A model generated the notes under the pieces. The model ran no database searches. It saw nothing but the letters and a program-made list of their open reading frames with translations, and was not told where the DNA came from. A program made the translations under genes and the position numbers. A DNA stretch of 45,996 nt from Hausera hauseri (lineage: Eukaryota), in assembly GCA_046269625.1 (NCBI GenBank), contig JBJURY010000012.1, forward strand, positions 62,001 through 107,996, written 5' to 3'. Positions within the stretch are counted from its first letter, which is position 1; each line of letters begins with the position of its first letter. Below, piece after piece: positions 6,959 through 45,268 of this stretch.

Positions 6959-7820
6959 GAATAAAATAAAAGGAATAATTACTGCATTAATAACCCCATT
7001 TAAAAAAAATAAAAATATTGATTATATTTCCTTATATAATCTATTAAGATATCAAATAAATAATAATATAAAAAAGTTCGTTATATTAGGAACAACCGGA
7101 GAATCTACTAGTTTAACAATAACAGAAAAGATTAAAATGTTAAGTTTTATAAGAAAAAAATTTAAAAATATTAAAATAATATCTGGATCTTGTTATAATA
7201 GTATAAGTAATACAATATACTTGAACAATAGGATTAAAAAATATTCTAATTATATATTACAAATAGTACCTTATTATTTAAAACCTAATCAAAAAGGAAT
7301 ATATTTGTATATCAAAAAGATATGTTTGTATACTAATACACCTATTATTATTTATAATGTTGAATATAGAACAGGAATAGTTTTAAAAAGAAAAACATTA
7401 TTAAAATTATCTAAAATAAATAATATAATAGGTATAAAATATTCATGTTTAAATATAAAAAAAATAACACATATAATAGCCTTTATAAAAAAGGAAAACA
7501 GAAAGTTTTTATTCTTTTGTGGAGATGATAAATATATTATAAATATATTAAAAAAAAGTGACGGTGCAATATCAATACTTTCTAATTATAACCCAGGAAT
7601 AATAAATAAAATATATTCTTGTATTAAACAGAAAAGAAATATCAATAGTATTAAATTATTAAATAAACAAATTAAAATATTAAGCTTAGAAATTAATCCA
7701 GTTATAATCAAATACATATGTTATTTAAAAAAAATAATATCTAATTATATGGTAAGATTACCGTTGATTAGTATAAATAAAAGAAATAAAGTAATAATAA
7801 ATAATTTGAAAGGAAGATAA
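6957..7820 (+). CDS. dapA: 4-hydroxy-tetrahydrodipicolinate synthase
   Basis: ALITPF, GTTGES, PYY, YNV, IGIK; start moved to MNKIKG. Confidence 0.95.
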
Positions 7821-8338
7821 TGAAAGAAAAAAGTTATTTTATAATAGAAGCAGGGGTAGGAGGTAAAGATTCTTATGGTTGTTTACTACTATTAAAAAAA
7901 ATGTATATAAAATATTTAAATAGAAATAAAATAATATATAATATAATAATAAATACTATAAGAACATTAATTATTAATATAAAAGATATTAAATTTCTTA
8001 GATATGAGGTAGGGATTCATAGGGTGCAAAGAGTACCTAAGACGGAAAAGTTTAATAGAATCCATACATCAATAGTATCAGTCGATATAATTAATAGAAT
8101 CCCTACAAAAGATACTATTATAATTAATAAAAAAGATATTATTATAGAAACATTTAAATCCTCTGGAGCAGGAGGACAACATATTAATAAAACTAACTCA
8201 GCGGTAAGAATAAAACATTTACCTACTGGTTTAAAGGTAGAATGTCAGAAAGAAAGATCACAGTTCTTAAATAAAAAAGAAGGATTGAAAATATTGGAGA
8301 ATAAAATAATATATGAAGAACATACTAATAAAAAATAG
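7820..8338 (+). CDS. prfA: peptide chain release factor 1, truncated (172 aa)
   Basis: [10 protein letters not shown] (RF1 PxT motif), [24 protein letters not shown]. Confidence 0.88.
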
Positions 8339-9359: not shown

Positions 9360-9377
9360 ATTAAGAATTATCCACTT

Positions 9378-9601
9378 ACTGAAGTGATGAAATAGGTAAA
9401 CATAGTGGACTTAGTTTTTTTGAGTGCTTGTAAATAATAAGTAGAATTTTTCCCTAATCGGAAGAATTTAAATAATAAAATTATTTTTATAATTCCGAAC
9501 TAATAAAGAATGTGTAGAGACTATATAGGAAAAGTAATAAGATATAGTCCAGATAGAAAATCCACAGCGTAAGCTTGTCGGTTCAATTCCGATCTTCAGT
9601 A
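9378..9601 (+). tRNA. tRNA-Leu(TAA), intron-containing (exons 9378-9412 and 9557-9601)
   Basis: ACTGAAG/CTTCAGT acceptor; joined exons give GTGGA-CTTAAAA-TCCAC; AGC-GTAA-GCT variable arm; GTTCAATTC T loop. Confidence 0.92.
9413..9556 (+). ncRNA. group I intron (144 nt) inserted after U34 of tRNA-Leu(UAA)
   Basis: P1 with U.G at the splice site, P3, P4, R element GTAGAGACTA, S element AAGATATAGTCC, terminal G9556. Confidence 0.9.
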
Positions 9602-12547: not shown

Positions 12548-13281
12548 AATTTATTAAAATGCATTCTTGTGGAAATGATTTTATTATAACAACAAAAAAA
12601 TTTAATATTAGCATTTGTAATAGAAATATAGGTATAGGATGTGATCAAGCAATACAGATAATAGATATAAAAAAATATATATTAAGATGTATTATATATA
12701 ATAATGATGGAAGTAAAGCTTATAATTGTGGTAATGGTATTAGATGTCTAGGATATTATATATTTAAAAAAAGAAAAATAGATTACTTGAAAGTTATTAT
12801 TAAAGATTATAAATATAATTTATGGAGAATAAATAAAACATATATATTATTTAGTGTAATACAATACTTTAATAAATATAAGAAATATTTATTTTTACCA
12901 AAAAATTTATATATATTAAATTATAATTTAAATATATTTATAAATTATAATATAAATTATAATTTATATTTTTCTTTTTTTTTTATTGGTAACTATCATA
13001 TTATAATTTATAAGAAATATAAAAGAATAATAAAACAATATAATAAAAAATTTAATATAACAATATTAAAACATAACAATATTAAAACAATTGAAAGAGG
13101 TTCTGGGATAACATATTCATGTGGAACAGCAAATTGTTCTGCACTTCTATATTACTCACTGATATATAATATAAGATTAATCAAATTAACAAATCGTTTA
13201 GGATATTTATATTTATATTTATATAAACATAGAATACTTTTAATAGGAAAAACTAATATAGTCTATAAAGGAATAATATGA
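12544..13281 (+). CDS. dapF: diaminopimelate epimerase
   Basis: MKFIKMHSCGNDF, GIGCDQ, NNDGS..NCGNG.RC, ERGSG.T.SCGT. Confidence 0.95.
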   Translation: MKFIKMHSCGNDFIITTKKFNISICNRNIGIGCDQAIQIIDIKKYILRCIIYNNDGSKAYNCGNGIRCLGYYIFKKRKIDYLKVIIKDYKYNLWRINKTYILFSVIQYFNKYKKYLFLPKNLYILNYNLNIFINYNINYNLYFSFFFIGNYHIIIYKKYKRIIKQYNKKFNITILKHNNIKTIERGSGITYSCGTANCSALLYYSLIYNIRLIKLTNRLGYLYLYLYKHRILLIGKTNIVYKGII

Positions 13282-13547
13282 TATATATTAACGCTAAGAA
13301 TAAAAGTATAGGTAGATTAAAAAATAATATAATCAACTTTATAAATAAATATAATAAAAACAAAATCAAGGTGGTTAATTTTAATCAGTTAAGAATAAAC
13401 AAAAAAAAGTACATTAAAAGGTATACTGGATATCCAGGAGGGATAAAAAAATATAAACTAAAAGAAATATTTAATAAACCTATATATTATATTAATTATA
13501 TAAGAAAAATAACTAATATATACAACAATATATTAATTATATTATGA
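13278..13547 (+). CDS. rplM: 50S ribosomal protein L13 (short, 89 aa)
   Basis: INA....IGRL, YTGYPGGIK; upstream of rpsI. Confidence 0.88.
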   Translation: MIYINAKNKSIGRLKNNIINFINKYNKNKIKVVNFNQLRINKKKYIKRYTGYPGGIKKYKLKEIFNKPIYYINYIRKITNIYNNILIIL

Positions 13548-13936
13548 TTGGCTTTTATTATTATGGTAAAGGAATAAAAAAAAAATCAATAGCTAAGGTA
13601 TTTATAAAAGATACTAGGAAAAAAAATGGATTAATAATAGTTAATAATAAATTGTTGATAGAATATTTTAAAAAAGATGGAATAGAGAATATATATTATA
13701 TTTTATCTTTAATAAAAAAGAAATTTTATATTAATATTATAGTGAATGGAGGAGGAATTATAAGTCAAATTATGGCAATAAAATTAGCTATTTCCAAAGC
13801 CTTACTAAACCTTAATACCTTTAATAATAATATTATTAAATATAATAAGCTAATTACTACAGATTCTAGAAGAGTAGAAAGAAAAAAAGTTGGATTGCAT
13901 AAATCAAGAAAAGCTCCGCAATATTCTAAAAGATGA
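13544..13936 (+). CDS. rpsI: 30S ribosomal protein S9
   Basis: GGG..SQ, DSRRVERKKVGLHKSRKAPQYSKR. Confidence 0.97.
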   Translation: MIGFYYYGKGIKKKSIAKVFIKDTRKKNGLIIVNNKLLIEYFKKDGIENIYYILSLIKKKFYINIIVNGGGIISQIMAIKLAISKALLNLNTFNNNIIKYNKLITTDSRRVERKKVGLHKSRKAPQYSKR

Positions 13937-14961
13937 TATATATAAAGAACAATTTATATTATTTTTTTAAATATAATTTTATTTATACTAATAAAATTAC
14001 ACTAAAACTAAAATTAGGTATAGATCCTACAGGTTGTTCTTTGCATTTGGGACACTATTTTTTATTAAATAATATTTTTATTTTAAAAAAAATAATTAAT
14101 ATTAAAATCATATTATTAATAGGAAATTATACAGCGGGTTTAAATAATAAAATTAAACAAAAAAAAATATTATTTTATTCTATAAGTATAATAAAACAAC
14201 TAATAAAAATATTTATTAATAATAATATAAAGTATAAACTATATTACAATAATTATTGGTTTAATATAAAAACTATTAATAGTTTTTTTATTATATTCAA
14301 AGGTTTAAAAATTGTAAACATTATTAATACAAATAATAAAAAACAAATAAATCAATACTTATATCCTTTATTCCAAGCTTATGATAATTATATTCTAAGA
14401 CCTGATATAGAAATAGGAGGGATTGATCAAAAGTGTAATTTTAAAATGTGTTTTCTTAATAGAATTAAAAAAATTTATTTTTTTCTATTTGAATTATTAT
14501 TAGATGAAAATAAAAACAAAATATCCAAAACATTAAATAAAAACTACAATCTGAATACAATAAAATATACTTATTATTATTTTATAAGTAATAAAAACAA
14601 ATTTATATTATACTTATATAAAAGATTTAAAGGAATTATTAAATTTATTAGAATAAAAAATAGAATAAAAACCGTTAATTTATATTATAGTATAATATAT
14701 AATATATATAAGGATAAAAAGATACTAAAGTATTTATATTATAATAAATATAAGATATATAAAATAACTAAAAAAATAAAACTCATAAGATTACTTGTAT
14801 TAATAAAGATTACGAACTCCTTAAGGGAATCAAGAATAATTATTAATAAGATATATATAAATAATAAGATAATACACAATACTTTTAAATATATTAGAAA
14901 AAAAGGAGTCTATAAATTAAACTATAAGAAATATAACATATATATATTGAAGATTATATAA
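13933..14961 (+). CDS. tyrS: tyrosine--tRNA ligase
   Basis: GIDPTG.SLHLGH, YPLFQAYD, EIGGIDQ, KISKT, S4-like tail. Confidence 0.92.
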   Translation: MIYIKNNLYYFFKYNFIYTNKITLKLKLGIDPTGCSLHLGHYFLLNNIFILKKIINIKIILLIGNYTAGLNNKIKQKKILFYSISIIKQLIKIFINNNIKYKLYYNNYWFNIKTINSFFIIFKGLKIVNIINTNNKKQINQYLYPLFQAYDNYILRPDIEIGGIDQKCNFKMCFLNRIKKIYFFLFELLLDENKNKISKTLNKNYNLNTIKYTYYYFISNKNKFILYLYKRFKGIIKFIRIKNRIKTVNLYYSIIYNIYKDKKILKYLYYNKYKIYKITKKIKLIRLLVLIKITNSLRESRIIINKIYINNKIIHNTFKYIRKKGVYKLNYKKYNIYILKII

Positions 14962-15154
14962 TATTAAAGAAATTAAATATAATATTTTTTTTTATATATA
15001 TATTAATATTATTTTTAATATTAATAATAATATTATTACTAATATTATTATTATTTTTAATAAATCTAATACTTTTTGCTTTAAATGTAATTAATAATAA
15101 TTTTTTAATTAGTAATAATTTTTTAATTAGTAATAATTTTTTAAATATATTCAT
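14954..15154 (-). CDS. small protein (66 aa), possibly a diverged RNA polymerase omega subunit
   Basis: Fills the tyrS/tRNA-Asn gap; LLLITFKAKSI resembles the omega motif (TYRARQL-like); size fits. Confidence 0.4.
   Translation of the reverse strand: MNIFKKLLLIKKLLLIKKLLLITFKAKSIRFIKNNNNISNNIIINIKNNINIYIKKNIIFNFFNII
15088..15141. repeat. 3 x 18-bp tandem repeat (TAATTA(A/G)TAATAATTTTT), in frame, encoding KKLLLI x3
   Basis: Read directly; one mismatch between units. Confidence 0.85.
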
Positions 15155-15163
15155 CAATATTCC

Positions 15164-15236
15164 CAATTTAACTTAGAATTGAACTAAGGACACATGGATT
15201 AACAGTCCATTGCTCTACCAACTGAGCTATTAAACT
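15164..15236 (-). tRNA. tRNA-Asn(GTT)
   Basis: GCTCAGTTGGTAGAGC D arm, ATGGA-CTGTTAA-TCCAT, GTTCAATTC. Confidence 0.95.
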
Positions 15237-15664
15237 TTTCTATTAGTAATTAAATTACCATATATATGGTCATATTCATGTTGTATAAATATTGAATTAT
15301 TATTCTTTATATATAATAATATTTTTTTATAGTTTATGTTAATATATATAATAACGATATACTTTCTTCTTTTAATTAATCTATATAAATAAAGTAAAGA
15401 TAAACAACCCTCAAAAGAGGAAATATATTTTTTACTAAACCATATTATCTTAGAATTAATAAATACATTAAAATTAAATATTTTTTTATTAGAAATAAAA
15501 GTATTATTTAATTTCCCTAATTGTGATAATGCTAAACCTAATGCTTTTTCTTTACGTATTATAACCATTGCTTTAATTATAATAATATATATAATTAGAT
15601 CTATATGTATTAAATTACTACTTTTGTTAAATAAAATCTTATTTGGATATCTTAATAAGTTCAT
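15230..15664 (-). CDS. def: peptide deformylase
   Basis: LGLALSQLG, EGCLS, QHEYDHIYG; start moved to MNLLRYP. Confidence 0.93.
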   Translation of the reverse strand: MNLLRYPNKILFNKSSNLIHIDLIIYIIIIKAMVIIRKEKALGLALSQLGKLNNTFISNKKIFNFNVFINSKIIWFSKKYISSFEGCLSLLYLYRLIKRRKYIVIIYININYKKILLYIKNNNSIFIQHEYDHIYGNLITNRKV

Positions 15665-15893
15665 GAATAAATATATATATATATATTGAATTTCAATATG
15701 TACAAAATGTAGAAAGATAAAATATATAATAAATAATATAAATTTAAATAGAATTAAATATATAAAATATGATAAAATGTATGATAAAATAAACATATAT
15801 ATAAATATTTTCCCGGCTATAGGATATAATAATTATATATCAAATAATAATATATTAAAGAAAATTATTATTATATTAAAGAACAATTTATAA
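15663..15893 (+). CDS. thioredoxin/glutaredoxin-fold protein with in-frame TGA at codon 9 (readthrough gene or pseudogene)
   Basis: MNKYIYIY*ISICTKCRKI...INIFPAI...: CxxC and cis-Pro loop; frame exactly fills the def-rpsJ gap. Confidence 0.6.
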
Positions 15894-16161
15894 TAGAAGG
15901 GAGATTAAACTTTAATAATTCTATAAACTTTTTTCTGGTAATTTTTTTTATAAATATCTTATACTTATATATTCTATATTCTATTTGATCCATAGAATTC
16001 TTATCTATATGAGGTGACCTTAATAGACTAAACTTTTTTATTTTTTTAGGTAAACAAATAACATTATAAATAATATAATTTTTTTTAAAAAATAATATTA
16101 TTTGTTTTAAATATTTATTTAATATAATCGGATTAAATGATTTTAATAATAATTTAATCAT
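15871..16161 (-). CDS. rpsJ: 30S ribosomal protein S10
   Basis: LKSF, LP, LRSPHIDKNS.DQ.E. Confidence 0.93.
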   Translation of the reverse strand: MIKLLLKSFNPIILNKYLKQIILFFKKNYIIYNVICLPKKIKKFSLLRSPHIDKNSMDQIEYRIYKYKIFIKKITRKKFIELLKFNLPSIINCSLI

Positions 16162-18202
16162 TATGTTTTATATATTGTTTAGAGACTTTTTTATAACAAA
16201 AAAAATCCATATCAAAATCTATCCTACCTTTTGTTAATGATCTAGCCACAGTGGAATAATTAAGCACTTCAGAAAGTGGTACTAAAGAAATAATTCTAGT
16301 TTTACCTTTCTCATTAAATGATTTAAGAATTTTACCTCTCTTAGAATATAAATTACTAATAACCCCTCCCATAAATTCCTCAGGGAATATTAAATTTAAT
16401 TTCATTATTGGTTCTAGAATGATAGGAATAGAATTTTCAAGTGCTTTTTTTAAAGCAATAGAACTTGCAATTTTAAAAGCATATTCACTAGAATCTACTT
16501 CATGAAAAGTACCTCCTATTAACTCTATTTTTATATCCGTGACCTTATATCCAAAGAATCCGTGTTCACAAGTTTCCATAAAACTCTTTTCTATTGGTTT
16601 AATATACTCATTTGGAATTGAACCTCCTTTAATAGAATTAACAAAACTATTTCCTTTGCCTCTTTCTTTTGGAAAAACATTTAATATAACATGACCATAT
16701 TGTCCTCTACCACCTGATTGTTTAATGTATTTACCTTCTATATTTAATGATGATTTACTTATAGTTTCTTTATAGAAAACCCTTGGATAACTTTTAAATA
16801 GTTTTATTTTTGAATCTCTTCTTAGTTTTTCTATAAATACTTCTAAATGCAATTCACCTAATCCTGATATTATAATATCAGAATTTTTTTTATTAAATCT
16901 ATACTTTATAGAAGGATCTTCTTGAGAATTCTTTTTAATATAAGAAATAAGTTTTTGTTGTTCTGATTTTAACAAAGGTTTTATAGTAACAGAAATAACA
17001 GGTTCTGAAAATATTATCTTCTCAAAAGAATACCTAGAATCTAAAGAAGATAAAGTATCTCCTGTACTAGCTTTTTCAATACCAGTTAAAGCAATTATAT
17101 CACCAGATCTTGCTATATTACTTTCTATTTTTTTATCTGCATGTATAAAAAATATTTTTGAAAACCTAACTTTTTTACCTTGAGTAGTATTATATAACAC
17201 TTTATTATCAATACTTAATATCCCAGAATATATTCTAATATAAAATAATCTACCTAAAAATATATCATTAACTATTTTGAAAATAAAACCATAAAAATCA
17301 TTATTATCTTTCAATAAAATTTTATTATCTTTATCATCGGAAATAATATATCTCCTTTCTAAAGGAGATGGTAAAAATTGTACTATACTATCCAATAACA
17401 ACTGTATACATTTATTCTTCAATGAACTACCACATACTATAGGTATTATTTTCTTACTGATAGTTAATTCTCTAATATACAATAATATATCATTATCAGA
17501 AAGCTTATTATCTAAATATTTAGATGTTAAATATTCATTATTATATACAATATCTTCTACTAATGTTTGTCTTAATAGTTTAATTTTATTTATATAAATA
17601 CTAGGTATAGTTATTACATTATAATCATTCATATTGTTAGAATTCCAATGATAATATTTCATATCAATTATATCTATAACCCCAATAAAATCACCATCTT
17701 TATATATAGGATAGTGTAATTTAATTATATTGGTATTAAATTTCTTCCTTATTTGATCACATACTAGATCATAATTAGAACCATTCCTGTCTAATTTATT
17801 AATAAAACATATAAAAGGTATTGAATATTTTGTTAATTGTTTCCAAATAACTTCTGTTTGCGCTTGTATGCCTGACACAGCACAACAGATTAAACAAACA
17901 CCCTCAAGTACTCTCATTGACCTTTGAACCTCTACACTGAAATCAACATGTCCTGGTGTATCAATTATATTAATTTTATAATTAACAGATTTTTTTTTCC
18001 AAAACACTGTAGTAACAGCTGAATTAATAGTAATACCTCTCTCTTGTTCCTGATCCATAAAATCCATTACTGTATTACCTTTATGCACCTCTCCTAATTT
18101 ATAACTTTTACCAGTACAATACAATATCCTTTCAGTAATTGTTGTTTTTCCAGCGTCAATATGTGCGCATATTCCTATATTTCTATAGTTATATATAATC
18201 AT
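16154..18202 (-). CDS. fusA: elongation factor G
   Basis: AHIDAGKTT, DTPGHVDF, NKLD, KQSGGRGQYGHV. Confidence 0.98.
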   Translation of the reverse strand: MIIYNYRNIGICAHIDAGKTTITERILYCTGKSYKLGEVHKGNTVMDFMDQEQERGITINSAVTTVFWKKKSVNYKINIIDTPGHVDFSVEVQRSMRVLEGVCLICCAVSGIQAQTEVIWKQLTKYSIPFICFINKLDRNGSNYDLVCDQIRKKFNTNIIKLHYPIYKDGDFIGVIDIIDMKYYHWNSNNMNDYNVITIPSIYINKIKLLRQTLVEDIVYNNEYLTSKYLDNKLSDNDILLYIRELTISKKIIPIVCGSSLKNKCIQLLLDSIVQFLPSPLERRYIISDDKDNKILLKDNNDFYGFIFKIVNDIFLGRLFYIRIYSGILSIDNKVLYNTTQGKKVRFSKIFFIHADKKIESNIARSGDIIALTGIEKASTGDTLSSLDSRYSFEKIIFSEPVISVTIKPLLKSEQQKLISYIKKNSQEDPSIKYRFNKKNSDIIISGLGELHLEVFIEKLRRDSKIKLFKSYPRVFYKETISKSSLNIEGKYIKQSGGRGQYGHVILNVFPKERGKGNSFVNSIKGGSIPNEYIKPIEKSFMETCEHGFFGYKVTDIKIELIGGTFHEVDSSEYAFKIASSIALKKALENSIPIILEPIMKLNLIFPEEFMGGVISNLYSKRGKILKSFNEKGKTRIISLVPLSEVLNYSTVARSLTKGRIDFDMDFFCYKKVSKQYIKHND

Positions 18203-18207
18203 TATTA

Positions 18208-18681
18208 TTAAAAAACAAAATGAGAAAATGCTCTATTAAGTTCAGCGTTTTTATGCACTAGATCTCTATTCTTAATAGAATCACCTGTATTAAAGTAACT
18301 ACTTACTATTTCTAATGCTAAAGAAATATAAAAACTATTTTTTCTATTTTTTAAAGAATTCCGTTTTAACCACTTCATAGCTATAAATATACTTCTTTTA
18401 TAATTTATTTTGATAGGTATTCTATACGTTGTTCCTCCAACTCTTTTACTTTTTATTTCTACTCTAGGTCTTATATTTCTTAATGATATTTTGAATATAT
18501 AATAAGGATTTAAAAAAAAAACATTACTTATAAAACAAAATGTTTTATATAATATACTCAATGCTTTATATTTTTTTCCTTGTTTCATTATTATATTTGT
18601 AAACTTAAATAATATATAACATCTATATTTATTTATAATATTTATAGTCCTTAATTTAATTTTTTTTCTTCTTCTTGACAT
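18208..18681 (-). CDS. rpsG: 30S ribosomal protein S7
   Basis: [22 protein letters not shown]. Confidence 0.96.
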
Positions 18682-19040
18682 TTTTTTGTACCATATTTCG
18701 ATCTGGAAGATTTTCTATTTTTAACGCCATTTAAATCATATACGCCTCTTATAATATGATATTTAACCCCAGGAAGATCTTTAACCTTTCCTCCTCTAAT
18801 TAAAACTACAGAATGTTCTTGTAAATTATGTCCTTCTCCTCCTATATAAGAAATAACTGTATGTCCTGATGATATTTTAACTTTAGCTACCTTTCTTAAA
18901 GCTGAATTTGGTTTTTTAGGAGTTGTTGTATAAACCTTAACACATATACCTTTCTTCTGTGGACAACTATTTAATATATTACTTTGCTTTTTCCTTTTTT
19001 TCTTTCTGCATTTTTTTAATAATTGATTTATTGTTGACAT
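18651..19040 (-). CDS. rpsL: 30S ribosomal protein S12
   Basis: [28 protein letters not shown]. Confidence 0.98.
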
Positions 19041-27187: not shown

Positions 27188-27574
27188 TTACAAATTAAAG
27201 CTTTTTAAAGTACCTTTGATTATCTTAAAACATTTATTCTTATCTAAGGTGTTAAAATCTAACTTCTTAATATCATAAATATAATTCAATAATTTATTAT
27301 TATATAGACATTTTTTTTTCTTACTTAAATCAAAAATCTTAATAGCGTAACTTACCAGAACTGAAATAGTAGGAGGTTTAATTGTAAATTTAAAACCTGA
27401 TCTTAAAATATTAATAAATACTCTATAATATAAATTTTTATTTAATAACTTAGTCTTACTATTAAACTCATTACAAAAGGTATTTATATTTATTTTATTC
27501 TGTCCTAAAACAGAAGATAATGGGGGTTTTGGAAAAGCTTTCATAGGTTTTATGTATAATTTTATAACATTCAT
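27188..27574 (-). CDS. rplK: 50S ribosomal protein L11
   Basis: PKPPLSSVLGQ, FCNEFN, KPP, GT.KS; upstream TTG extension lies inside tRNA-Trp. Confidence 0.92.
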   Translation of the reverse strand: MNVIKLYIKPMKAFPKPPLSSVLGQNKININTFCNEFNSKTKLLNKNLYYRVFINILRSGFKFTIKPPTISVLVSYAIKIFDLSKKKKCLYNNKLLNYIYDIKKLDFNTLDKNKCFKIIKGTLKSFNL

Positions 27575-27644
27575 AGAGATAAAAGGATTTAAACCTTTAA
27601 AAATGGTTTTGGAAACCAAAACTTTATCGTTAAGCTATATCTCT
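27574..27644 (-). tRNA. tRNA-Trp(CCA) with U27.U43 mismatch
   Basis: AGAGATA/TATCTCT, GCTT/AAGT, TTGGT-TTCCAAA-ACCAT, AAAGG-TTTAAAT-CCTTT; tuf-tRNA-Trp synteny. Confidence 0.9.
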
Positions 27645-28822
27645 ATCTTAGTTATAACACCTGCTCCAATAGTTTTACCACCCTCCCTGATGGCAAATTT
27701 TAACTGTTCTTCTAAAGCAATTGAAGAACATAATTCAACTTTAATATTAACACTTTCTCCAGGAAGGACCATTTTTTTTTCTTTATCTAATTTTATTATT
27801 CCTGAAACATCAGTTGTTCTAAAATAAAACTGGGGTTTATAGTCACTAAAGAAAGGAGTATGTCTACCTCCTTCCTCCTTTGATAATATATATATATTTG
27901 CATAAAATTTTTTATAAGGTTTTATACTACCAGGTTTTGATAAAACTTGTCCTCTTCTTATATCCTCTCTTTTTATTCCTCTTAATAAAATTCCTATATT
28001 ATCACCTGACTGCCCATATTGTAATACTTTATTAAACATTTCTATGCCTATACAAACAGTTTGAATAGTTTTTTTTAAACCTACAATTTCAATATTATCA
28101 TTATTTTTAATTACACCTCTCTCTATTTTACCAGTAGCAACAGTTCCTCTACCTGGAATGGAAAACACATCTTCTATAGGCATTAAAAAATCCTTCTTGT
28201 TATTATTAACAGGTGGATCTATATATTCATCCAAATAATTCGCTAAACTTACTATAGAATTAATACCATACTTATCTTTAGAACCTTCTAAAGCTAATTT
28301 AGCTGATCCTCTAATAAAAGGGGTTTTATTACCATTAAAATTATATTTATTTAATAATTCTCTAACTTCAATTTCAACCAGATCTATTTCCTCATCATCT
28401 TTTATTAAATCACATTTATTTATATAAACTAAAATCTTAGGCACTCCAACCTGCCTTGCTAACAATATATGTTCTCTAGTTTGTGGCATAGGGCCATCAA
28501 CAGCAGAACAAACTAAAATAGCACCATCCATTTGTGCTGCTCCTATTATCATATTTTTAACATAATCTGCATGACCAGGACAATCAACATGCGCATAATG
28601 TCTATCTTTTGTCTCATACTCAACATGAGTTGTATTAATAGTGATACCCCTTTCTTGTTCCTCAGGTGATGAATCAATCTCATCATATTTCTTAATCTTT
28701 CCACCATATTTTTTTGATAAAACACAAGTTATAGCAGAAGTCAATGTTGTTTTACCATGATCTACATGTCCTATAGTACCAATATTAACATGAGTTTTAT
28801 TTCTTACAAACTCCAATTTCAT
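27635..28822 (-). CDS. tuf: elongation factor Tu
   Basis: [32 protein letters not shown]. Confidence 0.99.
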
Positions 28823-28828
28823 AAACTT

Positions 28829-28900
28829 AACTTATAATTGGAATTGAACCAAAATCATTTTCCATACTAGAGAAAATCTTTACCTTTAAGTTATATAAGC
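28829..28900 (-). tRNA. tRNA-Thr(AGT)
   Basis: GCTTATA/TATAAGT, TTTCT-CTAGTAT-GGAAA, GTTCAATTC; occupies the Thr slot of the Tyr-Gly-Thr-tuf cluster. Confidence 0.87.
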
Positions 28901-28901
28901 T

Positions 28902-32596: not shown

Positions 32597-33141
32597 ATTT
32601 TATTATTATAAAAACTAAGTATATTTTTTATATCAAATAAATTACATACTATATTTAAATCTGGTTTATTAATTATAAAAATCTTATTACTAATTACTTT
32701 TATCCATTTATTTATAGTTATTTTTTTATCAAACTTAGAAGATTTATCCAATAATATTACAGAATCTATACTCAGTAAATACGACGGAATATTAACGACT
32801 ATATTATTCACTCTTACATGCTTATGGTTTATATATTGTCTAGCTGACTTACGTGTTAAAAAATAACCGGTTCTATATAGTACATTATCTAATCTATATT
32901 CTAATATACTTAATAAATTAACGTTTTTTTTTCTACTATATACAACATATCTAAATAAATTATTTTCCTTAATACAATAATATCTTTTTATTTTTTGTTT
33001 AGATCTAAGTTGTTTATTATATTCAGTATCTTTCTTTTTTTTTTCCTTGTATATAAAAAAATTAATTCTCTTTTTTAAATTAGAAAATAATTCCAAATTA
33101 AACATTTCTCTTTTATATAATTTCCCTCTTTTTATATTCAT
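32593..33141 (-). CDS. rpsD: 30S ribosomal protein S4
   Basis: QLRSKQK, LEYRLDNVLYR, ARQYINH, VNIPSY. Confidence 0.95.
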   Translation of the reverse strand: MNIKRGKLYKREMFNLELFSNLKKRINFFIYKEKKKKDTEYNKQLRSKQKIKRYYCIKENNLFRYVVYSRKKNVNLLSILEYRLDNVLYRTGYFLTRKSARQYINHKHVRVNNIVVNIPSYLLSIDSVILLDKSSKFDKKITINKWIKVISNKIFIINKPDLNIVCNLFDIKNILSFYNNKI

Positions 33142-33488
33142 ACTCTTCTTTTTTTCTTAGGTCTACATCCATTATGTGAAATCGGTGTAATATCTAAAAT
33201 AGCAATAATATTTAAATTTAAACTCTCTAAAATTCTTAATATAGCCTCTCTACCTGGCCCTTTTCCTTTAAATAATACTCTAACATTAGAGATTCCTAAA
33301 TCCATTATCTTATCTTTTATAGAATTAATATTTCTCTGTGCGGCAAAAGGAGTGGATTTTTTAGCTCCTTTAAATCCGTTTACTCCTGAACTAGTCCAAA
33401 ATAATGGTTTACCGAAATTATTTGAAACAGTAATAATAATATTGTTAAAAGAAGTGTAAACATTTATATTAAAAAAAAAATTATTCAT
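33138..33488 (-). CDS. rpsK: 30S ribosomal protein S11
   Basis: KKSTPFAAQ, GPGRE, HNGCRPKKKRRV. Confidence 0.97.
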   Translation of the reverse strand: MNNFFFNINVYTSFNNIIITVSNNFGKPLFWTSSGVNGFKGAKKSTPFAAQRNINSIKDKIMDLGISNVRVLFKGKGPGREAILRILESLNLNIIAILDITPISHNGCRPKKKRRV

Positions 33489-44882: not shown

Positions 44883-45169
44883 ACCATATATTGTGAAGAC
44901 TATTACCACGTGTAGAATATGTGGGAGAATAATTTTTAATTATTCAACAGTGAAATACCACTCTTGATAATACGAAACACTAATTTTATACCTTAGATCA
45001 GGTAAAAAAAAAATATATGAATGACAGTTTGACTGGGGCGGTCTCCTCCTAAAAAGTAACGGAGGCGTTTACAAAGGTTGGCTACTCCGAGATGGAAATT
45101 CGGAGGATAGGGCAAAGCCACAAGCCAGCTTTACTGCAAGACATGCAAGTCGAGCAGTTGCGAAAGCAG
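42932..45169 (+). rRNA. rrl: 23S rRNA, 3'-incomplete; last ~100 nt probably from another bacterium
   Basis: GGATGCCTTGG, GAACTGAAACATCT, GTAACTATAACGGTCCTAAGGTAGCGAAATTCCTTG, GACTGGGGCGG; homology stops in domain V. Confidence 0.95.
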
Positions 45170-45268
45170 AAGTACTCAATCGACACCTCTGAAATAAAGC
45201 CCTACTTCGAACTCTGGAGAGTTCTTGAAAAAGGCGTGTTTTATGCCGCAAATAGGCTTTACGGTTTG
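45152..45268 (+). other. fragment of a bacterial M3 (Dcp-like) metallopeptidase gene, foreign to this genome
   Basis: EQLRKQKYSIDTSEIKPYFELWRVLEKGVFYAANRLYGL matches the recalled Dcp pattern KPYFE..VL..GVFYAA..LYG. Confidence 0.7.

Follow-up and report, generated by a model that had tools for sequence, protein, structure and literature searches.

A release factor 2 (RF2) gene that appears to have been overwritten by its paralogue prfA, in a genome where a quarter of the genes end in UGA, is what we consider the solid novelty of this analysis. A small CxxC gene of the same genome carries an in-frame TGA, and our best explanation, held tentatively, is that UGA became leaky after the conversion of prfB by prfA and that the small gene is an eroded thioredoxin whose tryptophan codon is now TGA and is partly read through. 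The DNA analysed, here called the window, comprises 45,996 nucleotides (G000:C12:62001-107996) of a 108-kb contig (C12, JBJURY010000012.1) with ~15-25% GC in the 869-Mb assembly of Hausera hauseri (G000, GCA_046269625.1); coordinates refer to the window unless prefixed. We infer that the contig belongs to a Candidatus Vidania-like, betaproteobacterial planthopper symbiont, based on its size, on its amino-acid pathway genes, recognised by eye from the starts of open reading frames (ORFs), and on the Vidania labels carried by many top matches of its release factors. At ~45070-45170 the contig switches to foreign sequence inside the 23S rRNA, and a second, chimeric contig (G000:C101765:1-~2500) carries argG, an rsmH-like gene and the 23S end of the symbiont. 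The assembly is misjoined at the rRNA, with at least one misjoin in C12; because the second contig supplies these missing parts, the symbiont genome (~110 kb) is nearly all in hand. Between ~45070 and 45996, sequence of higher GC and then eukaryote-like poly-Gln sequence take over from the 23S rRNA.

The prfB remnant (7820-8338, + strand) joins an RF2-type N-terminus (GGKDS..C) to an RF1-derived body. Two tracts on this strand are identical to prfA, which is located at C12:59392-60090: one of 359 bp (7966-8324) that matches G000:C12:59553-59911, outside the window, and covers both the recognition loop and GGQ, and one of 51 bp (7899-7949), the two being set apart by 16 unique bases. The prfA and prfB products share a 119-residue identical run that includes the PxT loop of RF1, and the loop of the remnant reads PKT (8036-8044, + strand), of the RF1 PxT type, where other Vidania RF2 proteins have SPY or SPF. 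Among nine Vidania-labelled RF2-like proteins the loop was SPY/SPF in six, SKF in two and RF1-type in one (P0157). The prfB product ends 55 residues past GGQ, compared with 97-98 in three other Vidania RF2 proteins, and the prfB tract abuts the end of the next gene. The RF1 of the contig retains a normal RVQRVPxT loop. PxT and SPF loops are reported to set stop specificity, UAG versus UGA (PMC3472500). The symbiont contig carries only two release-factor genes, the second symbiont contig carries none, and a search of the whole assembly with Vidania RF2 returned no other symbiont copy. With the SPF/SPY loop replaced by PKT, the C-terminus missing and no other copy found, a working RF2 appears, as judged from sequence alone, to have been lost here.

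In four other Vidania genomes, too, RF1 and RF2 share identical runs, which span 25-56 residues and lie in the GGQ domain only, compared with nine residues in E. coli; in all four pairs the within-genome run was the longest of its row, the pairing by genome being inferred. Paralogues within a genome are thus more alike than those between genomes, a sequence pattern indicating that prfA and prfB evolve in concert. As described for Ca. Portiera (PMC3673631), the identical tracts of the release-factor paralogues are centred on GGQ. The Portiera tracts, however, measure 56-172 bp and are stated to lie outside the specificity motifs, whereas those found here (359 and 51 bp) include the recognition loop. 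A literature search outside subscription journals retrieved no description of prfA/prfB conversion for Vidania, nor of any tract that extends across the loop. Since prfB is listed as absent in 10 of 69 Vidania genomes (PMC12992758, Suppl. Data 4) and the text of that paper mentions no recoding, UGA may be terminated by another route. Two Vidania-labelled proteins, P0157 and P0022, have an RF1-type N-terminus, a PxT/PxN loop and a short RF2-like C-terminus, and look like RF1/RF2 chimeras. Both release factors of the present symbiont (7820-8338 and L012:1495-2193) are without the N-terminal domain, the PCRF profile being matched only from position 103 of 194; this domain is also missing in several other Vidania and Carsonella release factors.

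The sole tRNA-Trp (27573-27645, - strand) has the anticodon CCA, a 4-bp anticodon stem with U27.U43 unpaired, a 7-nt loop, and unchanged A9 and G24. It is the one cleanly folded tRNA of 25 in which the top anticodon-stem pair is open, and no tRNA with a UCA anticodon occurs in this set. On its predicted fold it fits the 4-bp-stem definition of PMC13092985, in which a tRNA-Trp(CCA) of this kind is reported to have raised UGA read-through ~2.5-fold in E. coli and to be the only Trp tRNA of Zinderia; it is also given there as the sole tRNA-Trp of ~6.5% of standard-code genomes, and the feature is not diagnostic alone. The tRNA-Trp gene overlaps both the stop of tuf and the region in which the rplK frame starts.

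Several other tRNA genes showed unusual features. The tRNA-Asn(GTT) at 15164-15236 is 95.6% identical over 68 nt to the tRNA-Phe(GAA) at G000:C12:43655-43727, and tRNA-Lys is 85% identical to tRNA-Asn, a likeness that may reflect conversion or recruitment among tRNA genes. Two tRNA-like genes (9360-9600 and L008:1496-1691) hold insertions; Rfam matched the latter to Intron_gpI at E=0.075 and gave no match for the former. We take both insertions to bear motifs like those of a group I intron core. ARAGORN called A34 anticodons for Thr(AGT), Val(AAC) and a poorly folded Ser(AGA) (28828-28901; G000:C12:26838-26910 and 48344-48428), which may be misparses. No tmRNA was detected by ARAGORN or Rfam.

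The small CxxC gene (15663-15893, + strand) runs from an ATG at 15663 to a TAA ending at 15893 and has 76 codons if its TGA is read through. It begins MNKYIYIY and continues with TGA as codon 9 (15687-15689, next base A), four codons upstream of Cys13 in a CTKC motif (Cys13-Cys16, 15699-15710); the 67 codons past the TGA contain no additional stop or frameshift. The ATG lies in a CATG (15662-15665) common to the start of def (peptide deformylase, 15230-15664, - strand), whose Pfam match begins at 15664, and the 3' end overlaps the convergent neighbour rpsJ (15871-16161, - strand). Start overlaps of this type occur in two other divergent pairs of the window (6956 and 30587) and, with def starting at 15664, the small gene fills the sole non-RNA gap of at least 90 nt in the window. 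On all of these points (start, first residues, TGA, TAA, shared CATG, otherwise unexplained gap) an earlier, sequence-only reading of this DNA proved accurate.

Statistically, the frame behaves as a gene. An open frame of at least 67 codons arose in 6.3% of 20,000 dinucleotide shuffles and a CxxC in 1.8%, with both in one frame in 0.025%. The codon score exceeded that of mononucleotide shuffles (p=0.0008, n=5,000), stood at the 42nd percentile of 363 real sense pieces and was reached by no antisense piece; the + frame was also the best of six. It could be argued that the frame is no gene at all but AT-rich spacer, or antisense to a def frame extended upstream by 44 codons, given the lack of a database match, a fold model with pLDDT 46 and a def frame that is open to 15796. 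However, the score per codon is better for the small frame (-2.85) than for the def extension (-3.27) and, with the shuffles and the shared CATG, this makes such a reading highly improbable. We conclude that the small frame is real and gene-like.

The weak similarities that we detected suggest that the gene is probably a decayed thioredoxin, and on balance we lean towards its being trxA. BLASTP against E. coli TrxA gave E=0.02 over the stretch YWISICTKCRKIKYIIN, and in both BLASTP and HHalign alignments CTKC pairs with the thioredoxin CGPC, with the CxxC at the start of a helix following a strand. Thioredoxin domain was the sole match among the 38,880 PHROG families (E=0.11 with W at codon 9, E=0.55 with X; no match with the part after the TGA alone). 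HHalign against 11 thioredoxins returned a probability of 3% and a profile score of 17.0, a value matched by none of 341 full shuffles and by 7 of 341 in which the CxxC was kept. A nine-sequence thioredoxin HMM scored 5.1 bits, equalled by 21 of 5,000 full and 54 of 5,000 CxxC-keeping shuffles, and placed the segment fifth among 718 from the contig. Elsewhere on the symbiont contig, no thioredoxin was detected.

General searches gave a different picture of the thioredoxin-fold gene proposed in the sequence-only reading. The read-through protein had no Pfam or NCBIfam match at E<=10, and with W substituted at the TGA no thioredoxin or glutaredoxin family scored above its cut-off; nor is the locus among the 78 PF00085 matches in the assembly. 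A word-indexed set of 5.8 billion proteins yielded five candidates, none at E<=10, a set of 1.84 billion representatives yielded no match, plasmids held no homologue, and the single match among PDB sequences (E=0.14) was unrelated and not a thioredoxin. Foldseek found nothing at E<=0.001 with the single-sequence model, which is itself of low confidence. Syntenic relatives were equally elusive: def retrieved one unrelated locus from genome contigs, fusA retrieved 22 metagenome loci at 39-60% identity, none of them symbiont-like, and the genome collection contained no relatives of the assembly, five of its own proteins having no exact copies there. These searches gave no confirmation of a clear thioredoxin fold.

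Comparison with TrxA (E. coli NP_418228.2 and Vidania trxA) was likewise mixed. The small gene shares the pattern aromatic-W-x-x-x-C-x-x-C-K/R-x-I with the helix that follows, one proline in a hydrophobic-P-A/T-hydrophobic context and a C-terminal helix. Unlike TrxA, it is without the N-terminal strand-helix, Asp26, Trp31 and Pro40, has CTKC instead of CGPC, is 76 rather than 109 residues long and scores under every library cut-off. The TGA had been placed at a conserved tryptophan. It does fall four residues before the first cysteine, in the Trp28 column, but that column is variable (W in 6 of 11 aligned thioredoxins); the invariant tryptophan is Trp31, just before the first cysteine (11 of 11), which is Ile in the small gene, so that the WCGPC active site (Trp31 and Gly-Pro) has become ICTKC. 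The cis-Pro suggested earlier has a candidate in the sole proline, residue 51 (15813-15815, + strand; IFPAI), which lies 38 residues past Cys13 compared with 44 in E. coli TrxA, but no local alignment extended to it. Of the 69 Vidania genomes tabulated in PMC12992758 (Suppl. Data 4), 23 are given a functional trxA and 46 none, which suggests a real but dispensable gene.

Alternatively, the gene could encode a glutaredoxin-like protein, or another small protein with a CxxC, whose codon 9 never specified tryptophan (TCA, GGA or CGA, for example, having become TGA) and the fit to Trp28 is coincidental. The 76-residue length and the start at the first strand suit glutaredoxin or NrdH. With X at codon 9 a six-sequence glutaredoxin profile scored 14.1 versus 12.3 for the thioredoxin profile, and such a protein requires no tryptophan at this codon, position -4 being T, T, G, V and G in five dithiol glutaredoxin-type sequences. 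However, 27 of 436 CxxC-keeping shuffles equalled the glutaredoxin score, BLASTP produced no alignment with E. coli GrxC, and the gene had no Pfam match to PF00462 and was not among the ten PF00462 matches in the assembly; a glutaredoxin profile match with TVP/GG motifs was not found. In addition, trxA but no grx appears in the gene tables consulted for Vidania (PMC12992758), and TGG to TGA is the favoured G-to-A change. We consider this origin improbable. Two further identities were rejected: ribosomal proteins L33 and L36, of which the CxxC context is reminiscent, because both genes were found elsewhere by eye, and a selenoprotein, because the TGA lies away from a cysteine position and no tRNA-Sec is present among the 25 tRNAs.

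In this genome TGA is in regular use as a stop. It ends 31 of 118 contig ORFs of at least 65 codons (26% of stops), 33 of 125 of at least 45 codons and, among the long ORFs of the window, 15 of 52; most of these stops lie in ATGA overlaps. S9, S11 and IF-1 stop at TGA exactly where their family profiles end, and read-through would add three residues to rpsI (S9, 13544-13936, + strand) and two to rpsK (S11, 33138-33488, - strand). The same 118 genes contain 118 TGG codons and no in-frame TGA, whether at tryptophan sites or elsewhere, in agreement with the earlier statement that long genes use TGG; in five other A/G codon pairs A ends 80-87%. Across the contig, a code 4 frame mended no split ordinary gene and no second in-frame TGA was detected in ordinary genes. 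Genome-wide code 4 was therefore rejected, and UGA is not a free tryptophan codon. The next TAA or TAG follows after a median of two codons past TGA versus six past TAA (p=0.006), but selection for back-up stops was also rejected, the difference being non-significant once ATGA overlaps were controlled (p=0.098). Vidania itself has been reported with prfB and code 11 (PMC10333215), and published tables give prfB, a tRNA-Trp for UGG and no in-frame UGA (PMC10333215, PMC10540940). The earlier appeal to Zinderia and Nasuia is thus an analogy only.

These data lend themselves to another explanation, which we judge nearly as likely as a leaky UGA: UGA may still terminate translation efficiently, through an RF1 of relaxed specificity or a factor supplied by the host. 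The TGA would then be an ordinary, recent nonsense mutation that is turning a dispensable trxA into a pseudogene, and the decay of prfB would be real but unrelated. The TGA-terminated genes, the conserved C-termini and the absence of TGA among tryptophan codons all suit it, as do the absence of trxA from 46 and of prfB from 10 of 69 Vidania and the prior loss of the active-site tryptophan and Gly-Pro. Against it, the symbiont sequence yielded no candidate for a factor that reads UGA, its RF1 has a normal loop, and the 67 codons past the TGA remain without stop or shift, three other sequencing runs implying no net change in length (see below).

A leaky UGA, the explanation that we tentatively prefer, follows from the replacement of the UGA-reading loop of prfB together with its truncation. 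Both release factors would then recognise UAA and UAG well but UGA poorly. A ribosome that meets UGA would either terminate slowly or accept Trp-tRNA(CCA) and run on to the next TAA or TAG, giving genes that end in TGA short tails. In E. coli with RF2 weakened at UGA, ~80% of the residues inserted at this codon are reported to be tryptophan (PMC11903333). As TGA is absent from needed genes, read-through would be too inefficient or too recent for TGA to have displaced TGG there; it may have surfaced only in a dispensable, already eroded gene, through a G-to-A change that fits the genome bias. The ambiguous intermediate stage imagined in the sequence-only reading thus gains from the lost RF2 loop, the truncation and the 4-bp-stem tRNA-Trp, and loses from the many TGA stops and the lack of a second in-frame TGA. 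Read-through as tryptophan is plausible, if unproven, from these independent features of the termination machinery. The fuller proposition, that UGA means both stop and tryptophan after erasure of RF2 (leaving two RF1-type factors and a Zinderia-like tRNA-Trp), that the thioredoxin codon was the first to switch and that overwriting by a paralogue is a route not described before, we regard as rather doubtful.

An assembly or consensus error could lie behind the TGA or the chimeric prfB, given that the contig is misjoined in the 23S rRNA and that another chimeric contig carries the remaining symbiont sequence. The TGA also follows a (TA)n run, and the contigs compared from other runs do not cover the codon. 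Nine runs from nine studies, none of those listed being an RNA run, hold 0.93-0.99 of sampled words of 13000-19000 (0.99 in seven of the nine; one may be the source). Contigs of four runs, compared over a part of the region that does not include the TGA codon, match def without differences. If the 6,830-nt contigs of X2 and X8 are shifted back by one unit of an 18-bp tandem repeat, their start falls at 8295, which lies within the release-factor repeat and exactly 30 bases from its 3' end. The contigs of 26,560 nt (X3) and 26,975 nt (X2, X8) start at 15205 and end exactly 30 bases into universal 16S stretches; across the small gene, their lengths point to zero net indel in X2, X3 and X8 and hence to the same (TA)n length. 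These contig-end checks are blind to A versus G at 15689 and to the 5' edge of the conversion tract. Moreover, the 16 unique bases between the identical tracts would not be given by a collapsed repeat, and conversion tracts recur in other Vidania. An error of this kind therefore seems quite unlikely.

Known code-change systems resemble the present one in part. Like Ca. Providencia siddallii (PMC10540940), this is a reduced, AT-rich symbiont with tRNA-Trp(CCA), a damaged prfB and UGA still in use as a stop; in sister strains of P. siddallii, ~9 genes with in-frame UGA are thought to rely on read-through (PMC10540940). There, however, prfB was hit by an in-frame UGA (intact in sisters) and 9-125 genes contain UGA (PMC10540940), whereas here prfB appears overwritten by prfA and truncated, with one candidate in-frame TGA only. 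Ca. Zinderia insecticola (code 4) is likewise a betaproteobacterial-type symbiont whose only tRNA-Trp has CCA with the top stem pair open (PMC13092985), and neither symbiont seems to have a working RF2. Zinderia, in contrast, has lost prfB and is reported to carry in-frame UGA in 59% of genes (PMC13712303), whereas here TGA makes up 26% of stops and ordinary genes contain none in frame. Set against the code 4 symbionts Zinderia, Nasuia, Hodgkinia and Stammera, a tRNA candidate for reading UGA is probably present here (CCA with the 4-bp stem), but many in-frame UGA codons at tryptophan sites (0 in 118 genes; one candidate) and the abandonment of UGA as a stop (still used by 31 of 118) are not.

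It is not settled which of RF2 loss, tRNA change and codon disappearance comes first in UGA-to-tryptophan reassignment. In this genome RF2 looks disabled although about a quarter of genes end in UGA, which codon capture would not predict. The cause may also be visible, since the conversion tract, which in other Vidania does not reach the recognition loop, appears to have crossed it here. Annotation by presence or absence would score the prfB remnant as present or merely short. Even a thioredoxin that is no more than a pseudogene would leave termination at UGA in this cell to be explained. Looking ahead, with dozens of Vidania genomes available, varying tracts among them and ten without prfB, the order of events should be testable by comparison.
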